Below are positions 7,198 to 63,721 of a stretch of DNA of 64,000 nt, piece by piece. The translations under genes and the position numbers were made by a program. Each line of letters opens with the position of its first letter. Position 1 is the first letter of the stretch. The notes beneath the pieces are model-generated. The model had not been told where the DNA came from, ran no database searches, and was given only the letters and a program-made list of their open reading frames with translations. Location of the stretch: IMG/VR virus record IMGVR_UViG_648028025_000005; one strand, given 5' to 3'. The stretch comes from a virus. Lineage: Duplodnaviria; Heunggongvirae; Uroviricota; Caudoviricetes.

Positions 7198-8088
7198 TCA
7201 GGCTGCCAGATCATCGTTTCCGATGGAAGCATAATAAGCTTTTTCTGCTTCTGCCGGAGGAGTATGGCCCAGCCTTCCCAGCAATCGTCGATTGTTATAC
7301 CAGTCCACCCACGTTAGTGTGGCCAGTTCCACTTCTGCACGGTTTTTCCAGCTCTTACGGTGTATTACCTCCGCTTTGTAAAGACCATTGATGCTCTCAG
7401 CCATCGCGTTGTCATACGAGTCGCCTGTACTCCCTGTTGATGCCAGTAATCCGGCTTCTTTTAGTCGCTCCGTATAGGCCAGTGACACATACTGAGAGCC
7501 TTTATCGCTGTGATGGATGGTGCCAGACGGACGACGGGCCCACAACGCCTGCTCCAGCGCATCCAGCACGAATGTCGTTTCCATAGACGATGAGACCCGC
7601 CACCCCACGATGTATCCGGCAAACACATCAATGATAAACGCCACATAGACGAAGCCCTGCCATGTGCTGACGTAAGTAAAATCAGCCACCCACAGCTGGT
7701 CAGGTCGTTCTGCCACGAACTGACGGTTTACGCGGTCGCCTGCGGCAACGGCTTTCCGGCTGATGGTCGTACGGACCTTTTTACCCCGGAGAACACCGGC
7801 AAGTCCCATAACCGCCATGAGACGTGCCACTGTACATCTGGCCACCCTGATTCCTTCCCGTAACAACTGACGCCAGACTTTACGCACACCGTACACCTGA
7901 TGATTTTCATCGTATACGCGCTGTATCTCTCTCTTCAGCCAGTCGTCGTGCTGCGCACGGGCACTGCGTTTATCCGGATGATGTCGCTGTTGCTGACAAT
8001 GGTAATACGTTGACGGGGCAATATGCAGTTCGCTGCATACCGGTCCGACCCCGTACTGCTCACGCAGCTTATCCAGCAGTGGCATCAT
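7198..8088 (-). CDS. IS629 transposase OrfB (DDE catalytic domain)
   Basis: 296 aa, recognised IS3-family OrfB sequence ([16 protein letters not shown]...). Confidence 0.9.
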
Positions 8089-8411
8089 TTTTTCCAGAGG
8101 CGGTCGAACTCCGCCTTCGCAAAATAAGCGGAAGCCTGGCGAAGGATATCGTTACTGCGGCGCAGTTCACGATTTTCACGTTCCAGCTCTTTCAGACGCT
8201 GACGTTCAGCGCTGGTGAGCCCACCATCACCGCCCCCGGTATCCCGCTCATGCTGGCGAACCCAGACACGCAGGGTCTCCGGCGTACAGCCAATCTTTGG
8301 GGCAATGGAACAAATTGCCGCCCACTGTGAGTCATATTCATCCTGACTTTCCAGAACCATACGAATCGCCCGCTGACGGACTTCGGGGGAAAAACGAGTA
8401 TTTTTAGTCAT
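8085..8411 (-). CDS. IS629 transposase OrfA
   Basis: 108 aa HTH protein [19 protein letters not shown]...; overlaps orfB start at A-rich run (GGAAAAAATGATG). Confidence 0.9.
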
Positions 8412-9499
8412 CCTGTTTACCTCTTTCTCAGGGAGTTTAGTCTCCAGGATTTCCGGGGCGGTTCATATACTTTTAGTGTGCTTTGATTCTGATATATCAT
8501 CTTTAATTATCTTGATGATTCTTTCATTCTGCCATAGAAGTGATGGTGCAGATATATAATAATAGTTAAAGCATGAATTATTTTTTAAGCAATCAAGCAC
8601 AAAAATAGCACCTAGCGAGTGCCCCCATATACCGATTCTGGAACTGTTCGGAGCAATAGTACTAACCCATGGCATGATCTGAGTTAGTAATAATTCTCGG
8701 AAAGACTGGCTTCCTCCACCAGTAAAGTAGATCCATGCTGGTTTAGAGTTATCAACAATAGCATTTTCACCATCAGGAGTATAATCGTAAGCACGGCGAT
8801 GAATGCTAAGGTTATTCCAAGATTCATAACCAAGTGTAACTAACACTGGTGGATTGGGTAGTGCATCAATAACAGGCAGAATATCAGAAATGTAATTGTT
8901 GGCACTATTCCCATCAAGTATATAAAGAGTTGCATTATTTTTTTTAATGTTTTTTGGAGTAAAAATACATATTTTATATTTGGTGTCATGGTTAATTGAG
9001 TTAAATATGCGTGTTTGACAATGAATGTCCATATGTTTAGTCATGCGTTCTCCCCATGAGCATTAAAGGATGCTTAAGATATGCTATGTCACTGATAAAA
9101 AATTTGTTGTGTGTGTTTAGTTATTTTATCTACCTCCATTATGATTTAAGACTGATATATGTTATCAGCAAAGGTACATCGTTATTATTTTACCTGTCAA
9201 TACATTTGATATTGATTATCGTTTACATCGCTTGCTTAGGAAATTGAAGGCAGGTAACTATCATGTCAATGAACTAACCCACAGTCTAACGTACTTCTTT
9301 CCCCAATCACCAACAACCAAATTCCTGTTATCACCACTGGGATTTTGGCGCAACTTCATGGTGCAGAGGTAAATAGCATCAAGCAAAATCTCTTTTTCCG
9401 TTGTTGTCCTTATGGGACGTCTGTCTTTCTGACCGATTTCATATTGGCGAGGTAATGGGAAGTTAAGTAGAATAGCTGCGGGTGCTTGAGGCTATCTGC

Positions 9500-9648
9500 C
9501 TCGGGCATGAACACCAACGGCAGATAGAGAAAAGCCCCAGTTAACATTACGCGTCCTGCAAGACGCTTAACATTAATCTGAGGCTCAATCTATGAACGGC
9601 AAATCTAGGTTAGCCTCTTACGTGCCGAAAGGCAAGGAGAAGCAGGCT
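9500..9648. promoter_or_regulatory. hok leader region; expected location of mok start and antisense sok RNA
   Basis: by analogy with hok/sok loci only; in-frame upstream extension of hok ORF begins at 9592; no sok promoter mapped. Confidence 0.3.
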
Positions 9649-9804
9649 ATGAAGCAGCAAAAGGCGATGTTAATCGCCCTGATCGTCATCTGTTTAACCG
9701 TCATAGTGACGGCACTGGTAACGAGGAAAGACCTCTGCGAGGTACGAATCCGAACCGGCCAGACGGAGGTCGCTGTCTTCACAGCTTACGAACCTGAGGA
9801 GTAA
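9649..9804 (+). CDS. hok: Hok/Gef-family type I toxin (HokD/RelF-like, 51 aa)
   Basis: MKQQKAMLIALIVICLTVIVTALVTRKDLCEVRIRTGQTEVAVFTAYEPEE; single transmembrane helix; followed by terminator. Confidence 0.85.
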   Translation: MKQQKAMLIALIVICLTVIVTALVTRKDLCEVRIRTGQTEVAVFTAYEPEE

Positions 9805-9899: not shown

Positions 9900-9971
9900 C
9901 CTGGCATTCTGGTTTACAATTCGCACGCCAGCCTGAACAACTGGCACCTGCTGCGCCAGCAGAGACAACCG

Positions 9972-10250
9972 ATGGCGCACGATACCAAATTATACAATTC
10001 TGATGATTCTGCCGTCTTTGCCAGCAGGCGCGGACGGTGTTTTCACGCATTCAAATCTGACTGGTACCAGCATCCCCCATGCACTGAAGAACAGGCCGAA
10101 TGGCTCATTCAGTGTTACCGCAGGCGCGGATGCGAGGTTAAAAAAGCCCTTAGCCTCGACTACCGTCACTGGATAATCTCCGTCAGGCTCCCTTACTCCG
10201 AACGGCCACCGCGTCCGTCCCGCACATTCCAGCAACGGATCTGGAGGTAA
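9972..10250 (+). CDS. small hypothetical protein upstream of DUF968 gene (Rem-position)
   Basis: ATG 9972 (MAHDTKLYNSD); paralog in B at 58845-59117. Confidence 0.5.
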   Translation: MAHDTKLYNSDDSAVFASRRGRCFHAFKSDWYQHPPCTEEQAEWLIQCYRRRGCEVKKALSLDYRHWIISVRLPYSERPPRPSRTFQQRIWR

Positions 10251-10251
10251 T

Positions 10252-11301
10252 GTGCGGGTATTACTTCGACCTGTTCTGGTACCGGAACTCGGTCTGGTTA
10301 TCGTTAAGCCAGGCCGTGAATCCATGCGGGTATTTCATGGCGGCAGGGTGCTGGTGGAGTCTGAACCGAAAAGCATGCGTAATCTGCCGTCCGGGGTCGT
10401 TCCTGCCGTTCGCCAGCCGCTGGCGGAAGATAAATCATTACTGCCATTTTTCAGCAATGAGCGTGTGATTCGTGCTGCTGGTGGCGCTGGTGCACTGTCT
10501 GACTGGTTATTACGTCACGTTAAATCCTGCCAGTGGCCTCATGGTGATTACCACCACAGCGAAACCGTCATACATCGTTACGGTACCGGCGCGATGGTGT
10601 TGTGCTGGCACTGCGACAACCAGCTGCGCGACCAGACATCCGAATCACTTGAGCAACTTGCTCAACAAAACCTGTCAGCATGGATGATTGACGTCATCCG
10701 CCACGCAATGAATGGCACACAGGAACGGGAATTATCGCTGGCTGAATTATCCTGGTGGGCAGTCTGCAATCAGGTGGTGGACGCATTACCTGAGGCAGTA
10801 TCGCGTCGTTCTCTGGGATTACCGGCGGAAAAAATCCGCTCCGTATACCGTGAAAGCGACATCATACCGGGAGAACAGACCGCCACCAGCATACTGAAGC
10901 AGCGCACAAAAAATATTGCGCTACCGCCTCACACCCACCAGCAACAGAACCCACCACAGGAAAAGACGGTGGTCAGCATTGCCGTTGATCCGGAGTCTCC
11001 GGAATCCTTCATGAAACGACCTAAACGTCGCCGCTGGGTAAATGAGAAATACACACGCTGGGTAAAGACACAGCCGTGTGCGTGTTGTGGTAAGCCAGCG
11101 GACGATCCTCATCATCTGATTGGTCATGGTCAGGGTGGAATGGGAACAAAATCCCACGATATTTTCACGCTACCGCTGTGTCGGGAGCATCACAACGAGC
11201 TTCATGCGGATCCGCTGGCGTTCGAAGAAAAGCATGGTTCCCAGGTTGATTTAATTTTTCGTTTTCTTGATCACGCTTTTGCAACCGGCGTGCTCGGGTA
11301 A
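10252..11301 (+). CDS. DUF968-family protein (YdfU-like) with C-terminal Cys/His motif
   Basis: 349 aa, GTG start after upstream stop; C-terminal CACCGKPADDPHHLIGHGQGGMGTKSHD...CREHH; paralog in B at 59119-60165. Confidence 0.8.
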   Translation: MRVLLRPVLVPELGLVIVKPGRESMRVFHGGRVLVESEPKSMRNLPSGVVPAVRQPLAEDKSLLPFFSNERVIRAAGGAGALSDWLLRHVKSCQWPHGDYHHSETVIHRYGTGAMVLCWHCDNQLRDQTSESLEQLAQQNLSAWMIDVIRHAMNGTQERELSLAELSWWAVCNQVVDALPEAVSRRSLGLPAEKIRSVYRESDIIPGEQTATSILKQRTKNIALPPHTHQQQNPPQEKTVVSIAVDPESPESFMKRPKRRRWVNEKYTRWVKTQPCACCGKPADDPHHLIGHGQGGMGTKSHDIFTLPLCREHHNELHADPLAFEEKHGSQVDLIFRFLDHAFATGVLG

Positions 11302-11313
11302 AAGAGGTTACTG

Positions 11314-11685
11314 ATGCGTATAGAGTTTGTTTTGCCTTACCCGCCGACGGTGAACACCTACTGGCGACGTCGTGGCAGCACATATTTTGTATCAAAAGCC
11401 GGTGAGCGTTATCGCCGGGCTGTGGCGCTTATTGTTCGCCAGCAGCGGCTGAAATTAAGCCTGTCCGGACGGCTGGCAATAAAAATTATTGCAGAACCAC
11501 CGGATAAGCGCCGCCGTGACCTGGACAACATTCTGAAAGCACCGCTGGATGCGCTGACGCATGCGGAAGTGCTCATTGATGACGAGCAGTTTGATGAAAT
11601 CAATATTGTGCGCGGTCAGCCTGTGCCAGGTGGACGGCTGGGCGTGAAGATTTACGAAATCAGAGGTGGTAACGATGGCGCGTGA
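11314..11685 (+). CDS. rusA: Holliday junction resolvase RusA
   Basis: 123 aa; RusA signature [15 protein letters not shown]...[13 protein letters not shown]. Confidence 0.9.
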
Positions 11686-12046
11686 TATCCAGATGGTTCT
11701 TGAGCGATGGGGGGCATGGGCAGCAAATAATCATGAAGATGTAACATGGCCCTCGATAGCTGCTGGTTTTAAAGGATTAATCCCGACTAAAGTGAAATCA
11801 CGTCCTCAGTGTTCTGATGATGACGCCATGATAATTTGTGGTTGTATGGCACGATTAAACAAGAATAATCAGTATTTGCACGATTTGTTGGTGGATTATT
11901 ACGTAGGTGGAATGACATTTATGGCTCTTGCACGTAAGCATAGATGTTCTGATGGGCTTATTGGTAAAAGGCTTTATAAAGCGGAAGGTATTATTGAAGG
12001 AATGCTTATGGCTCTGAATGTCCGGTTAGATATGGATATGCGGTAG
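11675..12046 (+). CDS. Q: late-gene antiterminator Q (phage 82 / QuuD-like)
   Basis: ATG 11675 with GAGGTGG upstream; ~123 aa; position between rusA and late region; Cys-rich segment [17 protein letters not shown]. Confidence 0.75.
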
Positions 12047-12197
12047 GGATATATAGTGATGAGGGTTATGTTTTCTGTGTTTATAATTAACATGTTTATT
12101 TTTTGATGGTCATGTATTGTGGAAGGTAGATAAAATGTTGCCTGGTGAATTGAAAATATTGATAATCAATCTTCATCATTAAATAAAAGGAGTGCTT

Positions 12198-13016
12198 ATG
12201 TGGATTGTGTTAGTACTGTCACTGTCAACTCTCAGTTGGCATAAGGTAGTGGCTTTTTCATTGTTGACGGTGTCTGTTGTCCTGGCTGTGCTTAATGATA
12301 TTATTGATTGGTCGGTGTTATTTTTTGTTGCTACAATCGTTTTTTTTATTATTTTGAAGTTCAACTGGAAATATAACGCCTGGGCTAAATCTATATATGA
12401 AGTTGGCATAGTTTTATCAGCCATAGCATTATCTTTCCATCTATGGCCAGGGTTTCACAATCCTGTAGTGCTAAATTCTGTTACTGTTGGCCCTCAGAGT
12501 ACTCCCTATACAATGTATTTTAATTTTGATAAAGCGCTGGTGCCATTTTTGTTAGTCCTGTGTACATCTTCTTTGTTTAAAAAAGAAGTAAAATCAGAAG
12601 TGTCTTTGTGGAAGTGGGGGGCTCTGTCGCTCTCTGTTCCTCTTATCCTGTTTTTGGCTGTTTTTTTTGGTGGATTAAAGCCAGAGATTCATTTTCCTGA
12701 GTGGTTGCCAGAGTTTATATTGGCTAATTTGTTTTTTGTGTCTCTGGCAGAGGAATCATTATTTAGAGGGTATATTCAATCACGGCTATCAGAAGTAACG
12801 TCTCCATTGGTTGCATTAATTGTGGCGGCTTTGTTGTTTGGTTTTTATCACTATTCAGGTGGTGCTTTACTTGTATTATTTGCCACGTTATCTGGTGTTG
12901 TGTATGGATTGTCATGGATGTGGAGTGGGCGTTTGTGGGTTGCCACCCTTTTCCATTTTGGTTTGAATCTGTGTCACTTGTTATTCTTTACCTATCCATT
13001 TTTAAAACATAATTGA
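12198..13016 (+). CDS. CPBP-family intramembrane metalloprotease (CAAX protease / Abi family)
   Basis: polytopic membrane protein with the three CPBP motifs EESLFRGY, FGFYH, HFGLN; AT-rich moron absent from prophage B. Confidence 0.75.
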   Translation: MWIVLVLSLSTLSWHKVVAFSLLTVSVVLAVLNDIIDWSVLFFVATIVFFIILKFNWKYNAWAKSIYEVGIVLSAIALSFHLWPGFHNPVVLNSVTVGPQSTPYTMYFNFDKALVPFLLVLCTSSLFKKEVKSEVSLWKWGALSLSVPLILFLAVFFGGLKPEIHFPEWLPEFILANLFFVSLAEESLFRGYIQSRLSEVTSPLVALIVAALLFGFYHYSGGALLVLFATLSGVVYGLSWMWSGRLWVATLFHFGLNLCHLLFFTYPFLKHN

Positions 13017-13302
13017 TTTTTTCTATGGTTTTAAATTTATAAGACTGAAAAATAGCAGGACGTGACATTTGCATGAAAAATATGCACGGCAAAGCATTTA
13101 CGTACGTAAAAAATCAGGTATGCTGTTAAGAGTGGTTATTTCGCCGCATAGCTTGACCCCGCCTCTGAGCGGGTTTTTTGTGCCCGCAAAGTAGCGCAGT
13201 GCGTTAAATGTGCTGGTAGTTATTAATACAGGTCTTTCAGCTTGCTGGCTTTTTCGGCAAGAGTTATTGGTGTGTCACGTTAACCGGAAAGGGTAAAAAG
13301 AC

Positions 13303-13500
13303 ATGCTGAAACAGCAGGATATGACAGAAACCGCCAGAGTTGTGTTTGATGAATTAAGCGTCACCGAACCGGCGACAGTCGGGGAGATTGCGCAGAATAC
13401 TTACCTTTCACGCGAACGCTGCCAGTTAATACTGACCCAGCTTGTTATGGCGGGTCTGGCAGACTATCAGTGCGGTTGTTACAGACGCCTTCAGTCCTGA
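13303..13500 (+). CDS. small putative DNA-binding protein upstream of AraC regulator
   Basis: 65 aa; paralog at 61318-61515 in B; followed by hairpin plus T-run. Confidence 0.5.
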   Translation: MLKQQDMTETARVVFDELSVTEPATVGEIAQNTYLSRERCQLILTQLVMAGLADYQCGCYRRLQS

Positions 13501-13637
13501 AGGCTTTTTTATTTGTGGTAAATGGGCGGCTGGTGGGTGTTAGCGGCACCTGTCAGTCCTTTGCTTATGTGTTGATGATAATTTACCTTTTGGGGCTATA
13601 ATTGAACTAACCAATTGCTAATGAAAGTAAAATTATA

Positions 13638-14351
13638 ATGGTTGTTGTCTGTTCAGTTATCATGGTTTGCTCCCCAATTAATATTTTTCTTGAAAAGGAT
13701 ACGTTGTCACTTAAGCCCGGCTCAGTCGTTCTGGCCACCAAATGCATCAGGGCGCTTTTCCTTATGCATTATGGCAAAGTTAAAATTTTCGATATAAACC
13801 ATTCCATAGTAAGTCAATATCTGGAAATTCAGCATAAGCTGACAAGAACTCATCTGACTGACGTTCCGCTTTATCTGTCACTGGAACCCAACAACCCTGC
13901 GTTGGCTGAGGCTTTAATTACCAGCCAGAGATTTTCCGGAGATACCACGGATATGTTTCTTATGATGGCATGCCTGTCGCTGTTTGAATCAGATGAACGG
14001 ATATTATTATTTTTAAGTGGATGTTTATCCAGTATAAGTGCCAAAGTCAGGGCGATAATTCAGACAGATATATCAGCAAGCTGGACGCTTGGTGCGATTG
14101 CGTTACGCCTGCATATGAGTGAGAGTTTGTTAAAGATAAAACTGAAAAATGAAGGGCACATGTTCAGTCGCTTGTTGCTGGAAGAGCGGATGCGTGTTGC
14201 TGTGAATATGTTATGTTCCCGGCATGGATATGGACAGGCTATAGCAGAAAAATGCGGTTATTCAAGCAGGTCCTACTTTATTTCTGTATTTCACCGCTAT
14301 TATGGCTTCCCGCCAGACAGATATGTATCCAGGCAAGGGCTTGATTATTGA
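13638..14351 (+). CDS. AraC-family transcriptional regulator (prophage-borne, YdeO/GadX-like)
   Basis: 237 aa; C-terminal AraC HTH (AIAEKCGYSSRSYFISVFHRYYGFPP); paralog in B at 61650-62363. Confidence 0.8.
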   Translation: MVVVCSVIMVCSPINIFLEKDTLSLKPGSVVLATKCIRALFLMHYGKVKIFDINHSIVSQYLEIQHKLTRTHLTDVPLYLSLEPNNPALAEALITSQRFSGDTTDMFLMMACLSLFESDERILLFLSGCLSSISAKVRAIIQTDISASWTLGAIALRLHMSESLLKIKLKNEGHMFSRLLLEERMRVAVNMLCSRHGYGQAIAEKCGYSSRSYFISVFHRYYGFPPDRYVSRQGLDY

Positions 14352-14379
14352 TTTTCATCTGATTATTATTTTTTGACCC

Positions 14380-14455
14380 GGCCCTTTAGCTCAGTGGTGA
14401 GAGCGAGCGACTCATAATCGCCAGGTCGCTGGTTCAAATCCAGCAAGGGCCACCA
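14380..14455 (+). tRNA. tRNA with CAU anticodon (Ile2/Met type, ileZ-like)
   Basis: 76 nt cloverleaf read by eye; acceptor GGCCCTT/AAGGGCC; anticodon loop CT-CAT-AA; T arm GCTGG-TTCAAAT-CCAGC; CCA encoded. Confidence 0.85.
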
Positions 14456-14462
14456 TCACATA

Positions 14463-14539
14463 CCGCCATTAGCTCATCAGGAAAGAGCGCCAGCTTTCGA
14501 AGCTGGTTGCGCGGAGTTCGGGTCCCCGAAGGCGGTCCA
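14463..14539 (+). tRNA. tRNA-Arg(UCG)-like, degenerate copy
   Basis: anticodon loop TT-TCG-AA; relative to canonical B copy (62477-62553) it has an A-A acceptor mismatch, an A-C T-stem mismatch and altered T loop TTCGGGT. Confidence 0.55.
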
Positions 14540-14552
14540 TTATCTGTATCCT

Positions 14553-14629
14553 GCGTTGTTAGCTCAGCCGGACAGAGCAATTGCCTTCTAAGCAATCGGT
14601 CACTGGTTCGAATCCAGTACAACGCGCCA
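14553..14629 (+). tRNA. tRNA-Arg(UCU) (argO-like)
   Basis: 77 nt; acceptor GCGTTGT/ACAACGC; anticodon loop CT-TCT-AA; T arm ACTGG-TTCGAAT-CCAGT; CCA encoded. Confidence 0.85.
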
Positions 14630-14643
14630 CACTTATTTTCCCT

Positions 14644-14669
14644 GGCTCGCTTTTGCGGGCCTTTTTTTT
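14644..14669 (+). terminator. rho-independent terminator after tRNA cluster
   Basis: hairpin GGCTCGC-TTTTG-CGGGCC followed by TTTTTTTT. Confidence 0.5.
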
Positions 14670-14734
14670 AAATGTCTCACAATTCAGGCGGTTGACTGTT
14701 GTCTGGTTTGCGGGGAGTTTGTTAAAAGAAACTG

Positions 14735-14842
14735 GCATGGTGAATCCCCCTGTGCGGAGGGGCAATCAGCGAGTAGGTATATGGGATAATCGCGGATTCA
14801 GGTGCTGGTACTGAATTCACCGGGAGGCACCCGGCACCATGC
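14735..14842. promoter_or_regulatory. conserved ~105-bp non-coding element upstream of nanS-p (copy A)
   Basis: ~90% identical copy at 63442-63549; contains hairpin CCCCCTGTGCGGAGGGG; A copy followed by hairpins at ~14868-14920. Confidence 0.35.
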
Positions 14843-15118
14843 AATGGCACATAGCGCCACTCTCCAGCCCCTCTCCGGAGGGGCTTTCTTATGGACAAAA
14901 AAAGCCCGCGCAGGGAGACGCGGGCGGCAAGGAATAAACAACAAAACGTGAAGTAATATTTCAGCTGGCGAATAATATCCGACAGTAATCACTCTGCGCA
15001 ATAGCGCGGCCTTTTTCGTATTGCGGGCTGTTGTCTCTCTTCTGCCATTGTCCTGTAACTTCCGGACTTCAGCCCGCTCCTCATTTTACTCACAATATTA
15101 TCCCGGCCGGGAGGATTC

Positions 15119-58709: not shown

Positions 58710-58844
58710 GGTAAACCTCACGGAGTAGGATAGAACACCATTCGATGATAGCACGTTGCCTGTTGACGACAACAGAAATCAGAGACAATATTGCCGCACG
58801 CCAGCTTGAACAACTGGCACCTGCTGCGCCAGCAGAGAAAACCG

Positions 58845-59117
58845 ATGGCGCACAATACCAAACATCACAATTCTGATATCGCCCCTGCCAGCAGGCAAGG
58901 GCGGTGTTCTCACACATTCAAATATGACTGGTATCAGCACGATCCCTGCACTGAAGAACAGGCCGAATGGCTGATTCATAACTACCGCAGACGTGGGTAT
59001 GAGTTTAAGAAAGCCCTTAGCCTCGACTACCGTCACTGGATAATCTACGTCAGGCTCCTTTATTCCGAACGCCCGCCGCGTCCGTCCCGCACATTCCAGC
59101 AACGCATCTGGAGGTAA
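58845..59117 (+). CDS. small hypothetical protein upstream of DUF968 gene (Rem-position)
   Basis: paralog of 9972-10250. Confidence 0.5.
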   Translation: MAHNTKHHNSDIAPASRQGRCSHTFKYDWYQHDPCTEEQAEWLIHNYRRRGYEFKKALSLDYRHWIIYVRLLYSERPPRPSRTFQQRIWR

Positions 59118-59118
59118 C

Positions 59119-60165
59119 GTGCGGGTATTACTTCGACCTGTTCTGGTACCGGAACTCGGGCTGGTGATCGTTAAGCCGGGTCGTGAATCCATGCCGGTAT
59201 TCCACAATACCCGGGTACTGGTGGAGCCGGAACCGAAAAGCATGCGTAATCTGCCGTCCGGGGTTGTTCCTGCCGTTCGCCAGCCGCTAGTGGAAGACAA
59301 AACATTGCTGCCGTTTTTCAGTAACGCACGGGTGATTCGTGCTGCTGGTGGTGCTGGTGCATTGTCTGACTGGCTGTTGCGCCATATTAAATCCTGCCAG
59401 TGGCCACACGGCGATTATCATCACAGCGAAACCGTCATTCACCGTTATGGTACCGGCGCAATGGTGTTGTGCTGGCACTGCGACAACCAGCTGCGCGACC
59501 AGACATCCGAATCACTCGGGCAGCTTGCTCAACAAAATCTGACAGCCTGGATGATTGACGTCATACGTCACGCAATAAGTGGTGCACAGGAACGGGAATT
59601 ATCTCTGGCTGAATTATCCTGGTGGGCGGTCCGCAATCAGGTGGCGGACGCGCTACCGGAAGCGGTATTACGTCGTTCGCTGGGGTTGCGTGCGGAAAAA
59701 ATCCGCTCAATGTACCGTGAAAGCGACATCGTACCGGGAGAGCAGACCGCCACCAGCATACTGAAGCAGCGCACAAAAAATCTTGCGCCGCTGCCTCACG
59801 CTCACCAGCAAAAACCGCCACAGGAAAAGACGGTGGTCAGCATTGCCGTTGATCCTGAGTCTCCGGAATCTTTCATGAAACGACCTAAACGTCGCCGCTG
59901 GGTTAACGAGAAATACACGCACTGGGTGAAGACACAGCCGTGTGCGTGTTGTGGTAAGCCTGCTGACGATCCGCATCACCTGATTGGTCATGGTCAGGGG
60001 GGAATGGGGACAAAATCTCACGATATTTTCACGCTACCGCTGTGTCGGGAGCATCACAACGAGCTTCATGCGGATCCGCTGGCGTTCGAAGAAAAGCATG
60101 GTTCTCAGGTTGATTTAATTTTTCGTTTTCTTGATCACGCCTTTGCAACTGGCGTGCTTGGGTAA
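59119..60165 (+). CDS. DUF968-family protein (YdfU-like)
   Basis: 348 aa; paralog of 10252-11301. Confidence 0.8.
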   Translation: MRVLLRPVLVPELGLVIVKPGRESMPVFHNTRVLVEPEPKSMRNLPSGVVPAVRQPLVEDKTLLPFFSNARVIRAAGGAGALSDWLLRHIKSCQWPHGDYHHSETVIHRYGTGAMVLCWHCDNQLRDQTSESLGQLAQQNLTAWMIDVIRHAISGAQERELSLAELSWWAVRNQVADALPEAVLRRSLGLRAEKIRSMYRESDIVPGEQTATSILKQRTKNLAPLPHAHQQKPPQEKTVVSIAVDPESPESFMKRPKRRRWVNEKYTHWVKTQPCACCGKPADDPHHLIGHGQGGMGTKSHDIFTLPLCREHHNELHADPLAFEEKHGSQVDLIFRFLDHAFATGVLG

Positions 60166-60177
60166 AAGAGGTGACTG

Positions 60178-60537
60178 ATGCTCATAGATTTGGTTTTACC
60201 TTACCCGCCGACGGTGAACACTTACTGGCGACGCCGTGGCAGCACATATTTTATCTCGGAGGAGGGAAAGCGTTATCGCCGGGCTGTGGCGCTTATTGTT
60301 CGCCAGCAGCGGCTGAAATTAAGCCTGTCCGGAAGGCTGGCGATAAAGGTGATTGCAGAGCCACCGGATAAGCGCCGCCGTGACCTGGACAACATTCTGA
60401 AAGCACCGCTGGATGCGCTGACGCATGCGGAAGTGCTCATTGATGACGAGCAGTTTGATGAAATCAATATTGTGCGCGGTCAGCCAGTATCTGGTGGACG
60501 GCTGGGTGTGAAGATTTACAAAATTGAGAGTGAGTGA
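60178..60537 (+). CDS. rusA: Holliday junction resolvase RusA
   Basis: 119 aa; paralog of 11314-11685. Confidence 0.9.
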   Translation: MLIDLVLPYPPTVNTYWRRRGSTYFISEEGKRYRRAVALIVRQQRLKLSLSGRLAIKVIAEPPDKRRRDLDNILKAPLDALTHAEVLIDDEQFDEINIVRGQPVSGGRLGVKIYKIESE

Positions 60538-61076
60538 GCGTAAATATGATATATCCGGAAATTACAGGCAAAAGCGGCGAACATTTACGCCTGAACACGC
60601 TGGAAGCAGTCTGGATCCAGGGGAAATTACGGATGTGGGGGCGGTGGTCGTATATCGGTGGGGGTAAATCCGGAAATATGTTTAACCGGTTACTGGTTTC
60701 GAAAAAGCTGACGAAAACAGCAGTTAATGAGGTTTTACGCAGCATGAAGAAATCCGGGCTGGAAAAACCGGAACTTGAGGCATTTTTTCGGGATATGACC
60801 AGAGGGAAGCAGAAGAGCTGGTTGTCACATTGTACAGACACAGAGGCGTTGATTATTGATCGCGTTATCAGTGAGGTGCTTGGGGAATATCCCGGGCTAA
60901 TCAATATTCTCCGGCAAAGGTACGAAGGACGGGGAATGAGTAAGAGAAAAATGGCAGAATGTTTAAATCGTACTCACCCGGAATGGTGTTTCAGCACATG
61001 TGAGAAACGTATTGCAGGTTGGTTAGCCGTGGCTGAACACATGCTTTATGTACCTATGCACGATTCATTTCGATAA
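60534..61076 (+). CDS. putative late antiterminator Q (positional call; unrelated in sequence to Q of prophage A)
   Basis: 180-aa ORF overlapping rusA stop, in the Q position; no family motif confirmed. Confidence 0.45.
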   Translation: MSVNMIYPEITGKSGEHLRLNTLEAVWIQGKLRMWGRWSYIGGGKSGNMFNRLLVSKKLTKTAVNEVLRSMKKSGLEKPELEAFFRDMTRGKQKSWLSHCTDTEALIIDRVISEVLGEYPGLINILRQRYEGRGMSKRKMAECLNRTHPEWCFSTCEKRIAGWLAVAEHMLYVPMHDSFR

Positions 61077-61317
61077 AAAAAGCTTGCTTTTTTACGCAGA
61101 AACAGCTTGAATTCCTGTAAGCTTCGCAAAGCTGTATCGCGAGGCGAAATGCAAGTTTTTTCGCACAAGGAAGCCACCGGAAGGTGGTTTTTTTGTGTCC
61201 GTAATATACAGCAGCGCAATAAATTCGCTGGTGGTTATTAATACCGTTCTTTCAGCTTGCTGGCTTTTTCGACAAGAGTTATTGGTGTGTCACGTTAACC
61301 GAAAAAGGGAAAAAGAC

Positions 61318-61515
61318 ATGCTGAAACAGCAGGATATGACCGAAACCGCCAGAGTGGTGTTTAATGAATTAAGCGTTACCGAACCGGCGACAGTCGGGGA
61401 GGTTGCGCAGAATACTTACCTTTCACGCGAACGCTGCCAGTTAATACTGACCCAGCTTGTTATGGCGGGTCTGGCAGACTATCAGTGCGGTTGTTACAGA
61501 CGCCTTCAGTCCTGA
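61318..61515 (+). CDS. small putative DNA-binding protein upstream of AraC regulator
   Basis: paralog of 13303-13500. Confidence 0.5.
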   Translation: MLKQQDMTETARVVFNELSVTEPATVGEVAQNTYLSRERCQLILTQLVMAGLADYQCGCYRRLQS

Positions 61516-61649
61516 AGGCTTTTTATTTGTGGTGAATGGGCGGCTGGTGGGGGGGCGACACCTGTCAGTCCTTTGCTTATGTGTTGATGATAATTTACCT
61601 TTTGGGGCTATAATTGAGCTAACCAATTGCTAATGAAAGTAAAATTATA

Positions 61650-62363
61650 ATGGCTGTTGTCTGTTCAGTTATCATGGTTTGCTCCCCAATTAATATTTTT
61701 CTTGAAAAGGATACGTTGTCACTTAAGCCAGGCTCAGTCGTTCTGGCCACCAAATGCATCAGGGAGCTTTTCCTTATGCATTATGGCAAAGTTAAAATTG
61801 TCGATATAAGCGAATCCGTCGTAAGTCAATATCTGGAAAGTCAGCATAAGCTGACGAGGACTCGTCTGACTGACATTCCGCTTTACCTGTTGCTGGAACC
61901 CAACAATCCTGCGTTGGCTGCGGCTTTAATTACCAGCCAGGGATTTTCCGGAGAGGCCACGGATATGTTTCTTATGATGGCCTGCCTGTCTCTGTTTGAA
62001 ACAGATGAACGGATGTCATTGTTTTTAAGTGGATGTTTATCCAGCATAAGTGCCAAAGTCAGGGCGATAATTCAGACAGATATATCAGCAAGCTGGACGC
62101 TTGGTGCGATTGCTCTACAGTTGCATATGAGTGAGAGTTTGTTAAAGACAAAACTGAAAAATGAAGGGGGCATGTTCAGTCGCTTGTTGCTGGAAGAGCG
62201 GATGCGTGTTGCTGTAAATATGTTATGTTCCCGGCATGGATATGGACAGGCTATAGCAGAAAAATGCGGTTATTCAAGCAGGTCCTACTTTATTTCTGTA
62301 TTTCACCGCTATTATGGCTTCCCGCCAGACAGATATGTATCCAGGCAAGGGCTTGATTATTGA
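61650..62363 (+). CDS. AraC-family transcriptional regulator (prophage-borne)
   Basis: 237 aa; paralog of 13638-14351. Confidence 0.8.
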   Translation: MAVVCSVIMVCSPINIFLEKDTLSLKPGSVVLATKCIRELFLMHYGKVKIVDISESVVSQYLESQHKLTRTRLTDIPLYLLLEPNNPALAAALITSQGFSGEATDMFLMMACLSLFETDERMSLFLSGCLSSISAKVRAIIQTDISASWTLGAIALQLHMSESLLKTKLKNEGGMFSRLLLEERMRVAVNMLCSRHGYGQAIAEKCGYSSRSYFISVFHRYYGFPPDRYVSRQGLDY

Positions 62364-62391
62364 TTTTCATCTGATTATTATTTTTTGGCTC

Positions 62392-62467
62392 GGCCCTTTA
62401 GCTCAGTGGTGAGAGCGAGCGACTCATAATCGCCAGGTCGCTGGTTCAAATCCAGCAAGGGCCACCA
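62392..62467 (+). tRNA. tRNA with CAU anticodon (Ile2/Met type)
   Basis: identical in sequence to 14380-14455. Confidence 0.85.
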
Positions 62468-62476
62468 TATCACATA

Positions 62477-62553
62477 CCGCCATTAGCTCATCGGGACAGA
62501 GCGCCAGCCTTCGAAGCTGGCTGCGCGGGGTTCAAGTCCCCGATGGCGGTCCA
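62477..62553 (+). tRNA. tRNA-Arg(UCG), canonical copy
   Basis: acceptor CCGCCAT/ATGGCGG fully paired; anticodon loop CT-TCG-AA; T arm CGGGG-TTCAAGT-CCCCG. Confidence 0.8.
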
Positions 62554-62566
62554 TTATCAGCATCAT

Positions 62567-62643
62567 GCGTTGTTAGCTCAGTCGGACAGAGCAATTGCCT
62601 TCTAAGCAATCGGTCAGTGGTTCGACTCCACTACAACGCGCCA
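62567..62643 (+). tRNA. tRNA-Arg(UCU)
   Basis: anticodon loop CT-TCT-AA; T arm AGTGG-TTCGACT-CCACT. Confidence 0.85.
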
Positions 62644-62649
62644 CACTTA

Positions 62650-62680
62650 TTTTCCAGGCTCGCTTCGGCGGGCCTTTTTT
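62650..62680 (+). terminator. rho-independent terminator after tRNA cluster
   Basis: GGCTCGC-TTCG-GCGGGCC followed by TTTTTT; approximate coordinates. Confidence 0.5.
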
Positions 62681-62812
62681 GTATCTGCGCCACGCCCGGC
62701 GCATATCAACCACAGAGCCTTTCGGGGGTGAGCTTACGGAGTGGTCAGTGTGACTTTCTCTGTGGGCAGATCGCTCCCGGGCGTTGGCTCACCCACCCAA
62801 AGGAACGTCACG

Positions 62813-63244
62813 ATGTTTGGAATCTTCAAAAAGAAAACCCGCAGAGCGGCAGCGGAAATTAAAAAGTTTGAGAAACGCGATCTGGCACAGGCGGTGATTA
62901 ACGCTGCATACCTGGTGGCCTATGCAGATGGTGAATGCGAGGCATCCGAGAAAGCGAAGATCGAACAGGTCTTACGTAATCAGCCTGCGTTGTCTGCGTT
63001 TACCTCGGAAATTAATGCGATTAGCGCAACTATTATCGGTCAGCTGGATACCAATTTTAAAATTGGTCGTCGTGCCGCGTTACGCGAGATTGAGGATGTG
63101 AAACACGATACGCGTGAAGCGGAAGATGTGCTGGATGTGGCGGTGGCCATTGCGGAGGCAGACGGCGAAATTGAGCCGGAAGAGCGCAAGGTGCTGGAAG
63201 AGATTGCCGGTGTTCTGGGTCTTCGTCTGGAGAATCACCTGTGA
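62813..63244 (+). CDS. TerB-family protein (tellurite-resistance TerB-like fold)
   Basis: 143 aa from ATG 62813; two TerB-like repeats with acidic loops (AAYLVAYADGECEASEKAKI and VAVAIAEADGEIEPEERKVL). Confidence 0.6.
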   Translation: MFGIFKKKTRRAAAEIKKFEKRDLAQAVINAAYLVAYADGECEASEKAKIEQVLRNQPALSAFTSEINAISATIIGQLDTNFKIGRRAALREIEDVKHDTREAEDVLDVAVAIAEADGEIEPEERKVLEEIAGVLGLRLENHL

Positions 63245-63408
63245 CGGTAAAACTGCGCCTGGCTGTGGCTGCACTCCTGCTGTTTCTGGTGGTGATGGTG
63301 GATTTCACCAGCAGAATCATGTCGGTGCTGGCGGATGGGGTGCTGGTCTGCGGCATTGTGGTATTGCTGTGGCCGGTGATAAAAAGAAACAGCCTGCATA
63401 ATGCTTGA
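63241..63408 (+). CDS. small membrane protein (55 aa), coupled to TerB-like gene
   Basis: GTG 63241 overlapping TerB-like stop (GTGA); two hydrophobic helices; below track cutoff. Confidence 0.3.
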   Translation: MTVKLRLAVAALLLFLVVMVDFTSRIMSVLADGVLVCGIVVLLWPVIKRNSLHNA

Positions 63409-63441
63409 TTTTTTTGTTTGCTGTTTATTAAAAACACTTCT

Positions 63442-63549
63442 GCATGGTGAATCCCCCTGTGCGGAGGGGCGATCAGCAACCAGGTATATGGGATAATCGC
63501 GGATTCAGGTGCTGATACTGAATTCACCGGGAGGCACCCGGCACCATGC
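63442..63549. promoter_or_regulatory. conserved ~105-bp non-coding element upstream of nanS-p (copy B)
   Basis: ~90% identical to 14735-14842. Confidence 0.35.
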
Positions 63550-63721
63550 TTTGCCACAAAAGTGTTGTTTCTGTTTTTCTCAAACTATCATCGTTATCCC
63601 TTTATTTCCGGCTGCGCATGGCGTGGCCTTTTTTTACGACCAGCCACTGGCAGATGGCCATCCTGTAATTTGATTCCGGTTCCGGCTTTTTAACTCTGTT
63701 CCTGTACACGGGAGAAATTCG

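Follow-up and report, generated by a model that had tools for sequence, protein, structure and literature searches.

The question raised by this locus is whether the Q antiterminator gene alone, or a larger late-gene switch, differs between two prophages that share the genes on either side of it. The window, a 64,000-nucleotide stretch of DNA held as IMG/VR virus record IMGVR_UViG_648028025_000005, contains both prophages, here called A and B. Complete chromosomes of E. coli O26:H11 (e.g. RM8426 and E2865) were found to match the A and B regions of the window at 100% identity, and the RefSeq annotation of RM8426 resolves the window into two lambdoid prophages, in each of which immunity and replication genes are followed by a nin-like region and then by the genes for lysis and terminase. 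A previous sequence-only reading had proposed that Q was swapped on conserved flanks. The core of this proposal was borne out by the BLAST blocks that delimit the swapped segments, and by the separate Q-family genes and cassettes found inside them. Overall we consider it highly probable that the difference arose when one cassette took the place of another in the lambdoid Q slot, with each prophage carrying a self-contained late-switch module.

Shared flanks and junctions of the Q slot

On the left of the slot, both prophages carry a DUF968 gene (A, 10252–11301; B, 59119–60165, plus strand, PF06147 with E = 8e-77) followed by rusA (A, 11314–11685; B, 60178–60537, PF05866; both on the plus strand). 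On the right lie a 65-aa ORF (A, 13303–13500; B, 61318–61515), an AraC-family regulator gene (A, 13638–14351; B, 61650–62363; both on the plus strand) and three tRNAs (A, 14380–14629; B, 62392–62643, assigned as Ile(CAU), Arg and Arg), after which A continues with a nanS-p-type esterase gene and B with a TerB-family gene and an esterase gene. Comparison of the two regions with each other by BLAST gave a left block of 89.5% identity (A 9922–11660 with B 58795–60524) and a right block of 93.7% identity (A 13171–14670 with B 61186–62683, plus strand). BLAST detected zero DNA similarity between A and B in the interval separating these blocks, and the replaced segments were therefore delimited as 11661–13170 in A (1,510 bp) and 60525–61185 in B (661 bp).

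The products of the flanking genes are 92.6% (DUF968), 86.2% (RusA), 96.9% (65-aa ORF) and 91.6% (AraC) identical between the two prophages. The flanks had been described as near-identical; they are indeed homologous, but at a DNA identity of only 89–94%, spanning 77% to 100% in a sliding window, that description was too strong. Identity reached 100% across the final 100 nt before the left junction and was 84% across the initial 100 nt past the right junction. With flanks no more alike than this, A and B are not each other's recent recombination partners, and a recent direct exchange between them was rejected on these grounds. The two prophages rather appear to be two draws from a common prophage pool, and at a flank divergence of 6–11% both the time and the direction of the exchange appear to lie beyond reconstruction.

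Alignment across the breakpoints, which the sequence-only reading had suggested as worth mapping, placed the left one at the rusA stop codon and the right one in the T-tract of the terminator tR′. Specifically, homology of the A rusA gene with B stops at 11660 and the final ~13 nt of B rusA lie past the breakpoint, the junction falling in the last codons of the gene; in each prophage the start codon of the Q gene overlaps or abuts the rusA stop codon. The right junction coincides in both prophages with the T-tract of an intrinsic terminator. The terminator hairpins differ, CCCGCCTCTGAGCGGG in A vs CCACCGGAAGGTGG in B, and homology restarts at TTTTTTGTG, that is at 13171 in A and 61186 in B. 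At the rusA stop, DNA identity is lost over the space of a few bases, from 100% to an undetectable level, and it is regained at the terminator T-tract; the GC content of the modules is unlike that of the flanks.

Several further features of the right flank and of the remainder of the window were recorded. In B, a TerB-family 167-aa ORF and a DUF3927 ORF (62741–63408, plus strand) lie between the tRNA cluster and an STnc100 locus; A has no counterpart of these ORFs, so that they mark a second, smaller indel between the prophages. The STnc100 sRNA itself was matched by Rfam in both prophages with 138 and 105 bits (14706–14896 and 63413–63585, plus strand), just upstream of the nanS-p-type esterase genes, at positions where RefSeq has a minus-strand pseudogene fragment alone. 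The first tRNA (14380–14455 and 62392–62467, plus strand) was called tRNA-Met (CAT) by ARAGORN and is given as tRNA-Ile (ileZ, AUA-reading) in RefSeq and in the 933W record; it is identical between A and B at 76 of 76 positions, and the two Arg tRNAs show 8 and 4 differences. The AraC regulators resemble YdeO/GadX below the NCBIfam cut-offs, and each of their genes has its own near-consensus promoter (ATGATA-16-TATAAT), located at 13575 in A and at 61587 in B. Other Rfam matches were to DicF in the early region of B (48602–48653, minus strand), to the sok antitoxin beside hokD in A (9480–9654, plus strand) and to the ALIL pseudoknot (8014–8130, minus strand) of an IS1203 copy interrupting an alpha/beta hydrolase gene in A.

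The late-switch module of prophage A

The 123-aa protein encoded at 11675–12046 of prophage A (plus strand) is named ‘antiterminator Q family protein’ in RefSeq. It had been read as Q82-like, an assignment that was not upheld: it matched PF06530 over its full length (2–118/118) with 175.3 bits against a cut-off of 26 (E = 5e-52), and this was the only family returned by the Pfam scan at E ≤ 0.01, the Q82 model (PF06323) remaining unmatched. The protein also matched the solved Q21 structures in the PDB (E = 6.9e-8) and is 79% identical over 121 aa to the Q proteins of the Stx2 phages 933W and VT2-Sakai. Yin, Kaelber and Ebright (bioRxiv 10.1101/651190) have designated PF06530 the ‘Q21/Q933W family’ and set it apart from the families of lambda Q and Q82; its sequence places the A protein in this Q21/Q933W family. 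Neither this protein nor the corresponding protein of prophage B matched the lambda Q family (PF03589) in the Pfam scan or any NCBIfam model.

A single gene had been said to separate the two flanks. The 123-aa Q gene of A is indeed there, but the A segment also holds a second gene and a late-promoter cassette. The second gene (12192–13016, plus strand) codes for a 274-aa CPBP/Rce1-like intramembrane protease (PF02517, E = 1e-19) and has a GC content of 38% vs about 54% in the left flank. Beyond it, 13097–13179 (plus strand) aligns with the pR′, qut and first terminator annotated in 933W (AF125520). More specifically, this cassette comprises a −35 element TTTACG (13097–13102) and a −10 element TATGCT (13119–13124) separated by a 16-nt spacer, a conserved AGAGTGGTTA (13129–13138), the counterpart of the annotated 933W qut (13138–13145) and a terminator identified by a terminator scan (hairpin 13158–13173, T-tract to 13179). 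No convincing −10-like pause element could be recognised by eye in the initial transcribed region of A.

The DNA directly after the A Q gene (12047–12200) bore no resemblance to the 933W pR′ region on alignment, whereas the stretch past the CPBP gene did, and the A cassette was therefore positioned after the CPBP gene. The Q gene and pR′ of A thus lie 1.05 kb apart on either side of a low-GC segment, whereas 933W has no CPBP gene and its pR′ abuts Q, overlapping the 3′ end of the gene. Taken with the PF02517 match, the low GC content and the 933W-like cassette beyond it, this arrangement identifies the CPBP gene as a moron lodged between Q and pR′. The placement of a CPBP gene between Q and promoter is common, the module occurring in 571 complete E. 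coli genomes. Both 933W and prophage A have the ileZ-argN-argO tRNAs and a nanS-p-type esterase gene downstream. However, the A protein lacks the ~25-aa C-terminal extension of Q933W, stx genes are absent from prophage A, and the genes upstream of Q are DUF968-rusA vs roi-ninG-ninH in 933W.

The DUF1133 protein and its cassette in prophage B

The ORF reported at 60534–61076 of prophage B (180 aa) exists. RefSeq starts the gene at the ATG at 60546 (60546–61076, plus strand, 176 aa), where the Pfam match also begins, and 60534 is an upstream in-frame GTG. RefSeq names the product ‘DUF1133 family protein’, and it matched the DUF1133 model PF06576 over its full length (E = 1e-110). The same protein had been regarded as unrelated to the Q of prophage A. 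This view had to be abandoned, because the protein also clears the PF06530 gathering score (35.1 bits vs a cut-off of 26) and gives profile and fold matches to Q21; pairwise, it is 29% identical to A Q over 63 aa. As its best model is PF06576, the B protein constitutes a distinct subfamily within the Q21/Q933W superfamily. Precomputed PF06530 matches were present on all 120 close DUF1133 homologues retrieved. Several GenBank phage records label the DUF1133 homologue ‘antitermination protein Q’, some sources call such homologues ‘antiterminator’, ‘Antitermination protein Q’ or ‘Late gene regulator’, and in a list for Stx phages Pinto et al. 2021 gave DUF1133 the entry ‘Q antiterminator (HHPred)’.

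When the DUF1133 protein was searched against the PDB as a single sequence using phmmer, the match to Q21 was marginal (E = 0.18); a profile built from 35 family members matched Q21 (6P18_P) with E = 9.8e-8. The profile match spans Q21 residues 6–44 and 56–152, so that the N-terminal WG.W motif of Q21 is covered as well as its C-terminal body, and roughly 40 extra DUF1133 residues lie between the two blocks. DUF1133 and the Q21 protein of phage 21 (6P18/6P19/6P1A-C, 6JNX/6JNY) have the motifs W..G.L..WG.W.Y and C.D.(D/E).(L/M).I in common at an overall identity of about 18%. A homologue search from the Edwardsiella protein gave four sequences, and the resulting shallow alignment for structure prediction led to a moderately confident model. 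The AlphaFold2 model of the B protein had a mean pLDDT of 63.8, with values of 76–97 for the C-terminal 80 residues and below 50 for residues 1–52, so that its fold match to Q21 depends mostly on the C-terminal half. The best ten Foldseek hits in the PDB were all Q21 chains (probability 1.00, target-normalised TM score 0.57–0.64, E 2.5e-3 to 1.9e-2), and the hit following them had E = 2.2. Judged from sequence and predicted fold together, the B protein appears to be a divergent member of the Q21/Q933W superfamily and a remote homologue of A Q.

The genetic context of DUF1133 was then considered. In RM8426 and in five of five phages inspected (E. coli Rac-SA53 and vB_EcoS-683R6, Klebsiella phage 1 LV-2017, Providencia PSTCR8lys and Edwardsiella EPP-1), the DUF1133 gene is the last early gene, with morons and the lysis cassette after it. 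The sequence-only reading had held that its case would fall if the ORF proved to be a non-antiterminator protein and a separate Q gene lay elsewhere; what we found was a Q21-fold homologue and no other Q in the early region of prophage B, where RefSeq names no second Q-family gene and the unnamed ORFs have no Q-family Pfam match. DUF1133 homologues were also met on two short contigs attributed to taxa outside the enterobacteria, a Candidatus Nanosynbacter MAG (82% identity) and a Vagococcus sp. (56%); these copies are probably contaminating enterobacterial prophage DNA in the assemblies.

In order to examine the downstream region, the DNA past the DUF1133 stop codon was aligned for 41 distinct loci, namely the five phages and 36 genomes from many enterobacterial genera. 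The alignment revealed a conserved order of a −35/−10 promoter, TAnGCT as a second −10-like hexamer 5–7 nt on, a variable stretch of 25–60 nt and a GC-rich hairpin with a T-tract. TAnGCT was present in 36 of the 41 loci, where 5.4 were expected from shuffles (maximum 14 in 500), and a clean terminator stood at the equivalent position in 32. The Providencia, Xenorhabdus and Edwardsiella copies of the promoter are near-consensus (TTGACT/TTGACA-16-TATAGT/TAATAT/TAGTAT). In prophage B the equivalent elements would be a −35-like TTGCTT (61084–61089) and a −10-like TTGAAT (61107–61112), followed by a second −10-like hexamer, TAAGCT (61118–61123), as candidate sigma-dependent pause element. The B terminator (61174–61194, plus strand) consists of a hairpin (61174–61187) and a T-tract (61188–61194) with a fold of −19 kcal/mol and z = −5.2, and has equivalents in other DUF1133 loci. 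The B promoter hexamers are weak, with no A at −11, and a consensus promoter scan gave no sigma-70 site in 61077–61186; the promoter assignment therefore rests on the comparative alignment, and the exact promoter, QBE and pause positions in B are predicted ones. The search for late promoters that had been suggested for both prophages thus yielded the 933W-type cassette of A and a putative pR′ at 61084–61123 (plus strand) in B.

Five of the 41 loci have no TAnGCT. Among these, the loci of E. coli ECMA0423 and Salmonella s1 carry a different cassette, with a downstream TTGACT-17-TATATT and another leader and terminator, despite a DUF1133 protein that is 76–78% identical; a sub-swap of the promoter/qut region alone may have occurred there. 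Rfam returned no family at the pR′-tR′ leader of either A or B. The anti-sRNAs AgvB and AsxR were considered as identities for these leaders and dropped, since Tree et al. 2014 locate these sRNAs at the moron site 3′ of stx, which lies farther downstream.

Overall, the arrangement in B of Q gene, pR′, sigma-dependent pause element and terminator has, as read from its sequence, the layout of a textbook Q-dependent cassette of the design described by Yin et al. 2019 (bioRxiv 10.1101/651190). The same layout is found in the lambda Q/pR′/6S RNA/tR′ system (PF03589), with its constitutive promoter, −10-like pause near +1, short leader and terminator, although the fold of lambda Q is unrelated to that of the B DUF1133 protein. 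The predicted B leader of about 75 nt is also shorter than that of lambda, which is 194 nt. The DUF1133 cassette has no similarity to the Q933W-type cassette of A.

These observations lead us to infer that the B DUF1133 protein is a Q-type late-gene antiterminator. The main competing explanation, which we judge unlikely, is that DUF1133 is some other DNA-binding regulator, for instance one that resembles sigma R4 and represses or activates the morons downstream, and that prophage B has no functional Q and is defective in late transcription. Yin et al. 2019 (bioRxiv 10.1101/651190) relate the fold of Q21 to sigma region 4, so that likeness of fold is by itself no proof of antitermination; moreover, the family is uncharacterised, being named as a DUF in both RefSeq and Pfam, and the N-terminal half of the model is of low confidence. 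However, the profile match is confined neither to the C-terminal body nor to the N-terminal motif, and the DUF1133 gene was always the last early gene before the lysis genes in the phages inspected. It is followed by the promoter, −10-like repeat and terminator in most of the 41 loci across many genera, and it is the sole Q candidate in records of inducible, plaque-forming phages.

A polymorphic Q slot and the predicted independence of late operons

The occurrence of both modules was surveyed in 5,426 complete E. coli genomes, with queries made of one module and 100 nt of flank on either side, at ≥80% coverage. The B-type module was found in 809 of these genomes and the A-type in 571; both arrangements are thus already present in public genomes hundreds of times. 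Copies 99–100% identical to each module occur on the same junctions in other serotypes (O157:H7 and O111), and many further genomes match just to the end of rusA, or just from shortly past the terminator. In E. coli WGS1363 (L051 2054–2875) and A10 (L049 3125–3946), a 273-aa lambda-family Q (PF03589) occupies the slot between the same DUF968-rusA and 65-aa ORF, and consequently the slot holds at least three Q types. This Q carries a terminator of its own, and homology among the three types restarts at the T-tract. It also has a DnaJ-like zinc-finger match. The AraC position is variable too, being taken by a DNA methyltransferase in ST130 and WGS1363.

That no swap occurred, and that the two Q genes diverged in place by accelerated evolution with A later gaining the CPBP insert, is very improbable: the two proteins are remote homologues with a common PF06530 match and limited pairwise identity, but the loss of DNA identity is sharp at both junctions, each module has near-identical copies on these junctions in other serotypes, the closely related 933W protein has different flanks, other strains have a non-homologous lambda-family Q in this slot, and the GC content of the modules departs from that of the flanks.

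Under the cassette replacement that we favour, each module would begin where rusA ends and close in the tR′ T-tract, and would combine three parts: the gene for Q, a matching late promoter that is constitutively active and is accompanied by Q-binding and pause elements, and the terminator tR′. The A module would comprise a Q933W-type Q, the CPBP protease moron and then a 933W-type pR′-qut-tR′. The B module would comprise a DUF1133-type Q, whose Q21 fold is enlarged by some 40 residues, with a compact cassette directly behind it in which a promoter is followed by a −10-like repeat near position +1 and, about 75 nt further on, by a terminator. Exchange of the modules probably took place through recombination between conserved flanks in a shared pool of EHEC prophages, and not directly between A and B. 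Within the swapped segments each Q travels with a promoter-leader-terminator unit of its own, and the two units are dissimilar.

By analogy with Q21 and lambda Q, each Q would bind just its own promoter-proximal paused RNA polymerase, which would become terminator-resistant once loaded with Q and read past tR′ into the tRNA, nanS-p, lysis and structural genes. The basis for this mechanism is given by Yin et al. 2019 (bioRxiv 10.1101/651190), and the specificity of Q for its own qut has been noted before (PMC6266700); low-identity Q alleles in otherwise similar Stx prophages are also described in the literature. As the Q-binding and pause regions differ, A and B would be expected not to cross-activate one another, and with each Q restricted to its own paused polymerase the two late operons would be switched on independently despite their shared flanks. 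The different late-promoter/qut specificity that the sequence-only reading had anticipated is in keeping with these mutually dissimilar promoter, qut and terminator cassettes.

A broader reading can be offered tentatively. DUF1133 may define a specificity class of Q21-fold antiterminators, with a ~40-residue insertion and a compact lambda-like cassette (a −10-like pause element at ~+1, a ~75-nt leader and a strong terminator) conserved from Escherichia to Xenorhabdus and Edwardsiella; the leader RNA, made constitutively, might also act in trans in lysogens; and the tR′ T-tract may be a border at which Q cassettes from three families have repeatedly recombined. We regard this reading as possible but doubtful.

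The swap of equivalent modules at gene boundaries is a defining trait of lambdoid genomes, and the present case is an ordinary, documented one. The diversity of Q alleles in EHEC prophages (q933, q21 and qO111:H-) is well described in the literature; STEC prophages likewise trade functionally equivalent modules between conserved flanks, with the joins at gene boundaries, and nothing substantive sets the present exchange apart, A and B being non-Stx prophages of an O26 strain. That the Q slot from rusA to the tR′ T-tract accepts at least three Q types leaves the current view of lambdoid mosaicism unchanged. DUF1133 had already been predicted to be a Q, and what is mildly new is the explicit delineation of the DUF1133-type cassette. 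The practical gain is small: a RefSeq ‘DUF1133 family protein’ can be read as a predicted Q-type antiterminator with a definable cognate cassette. Q alleles already serve as markers of Stx expression level, and in polylysogenic EHEC the Q/qut type of each prophage decides which late operons, toxin and effector morons included, can be cross-activated by the induction of a neighbour.
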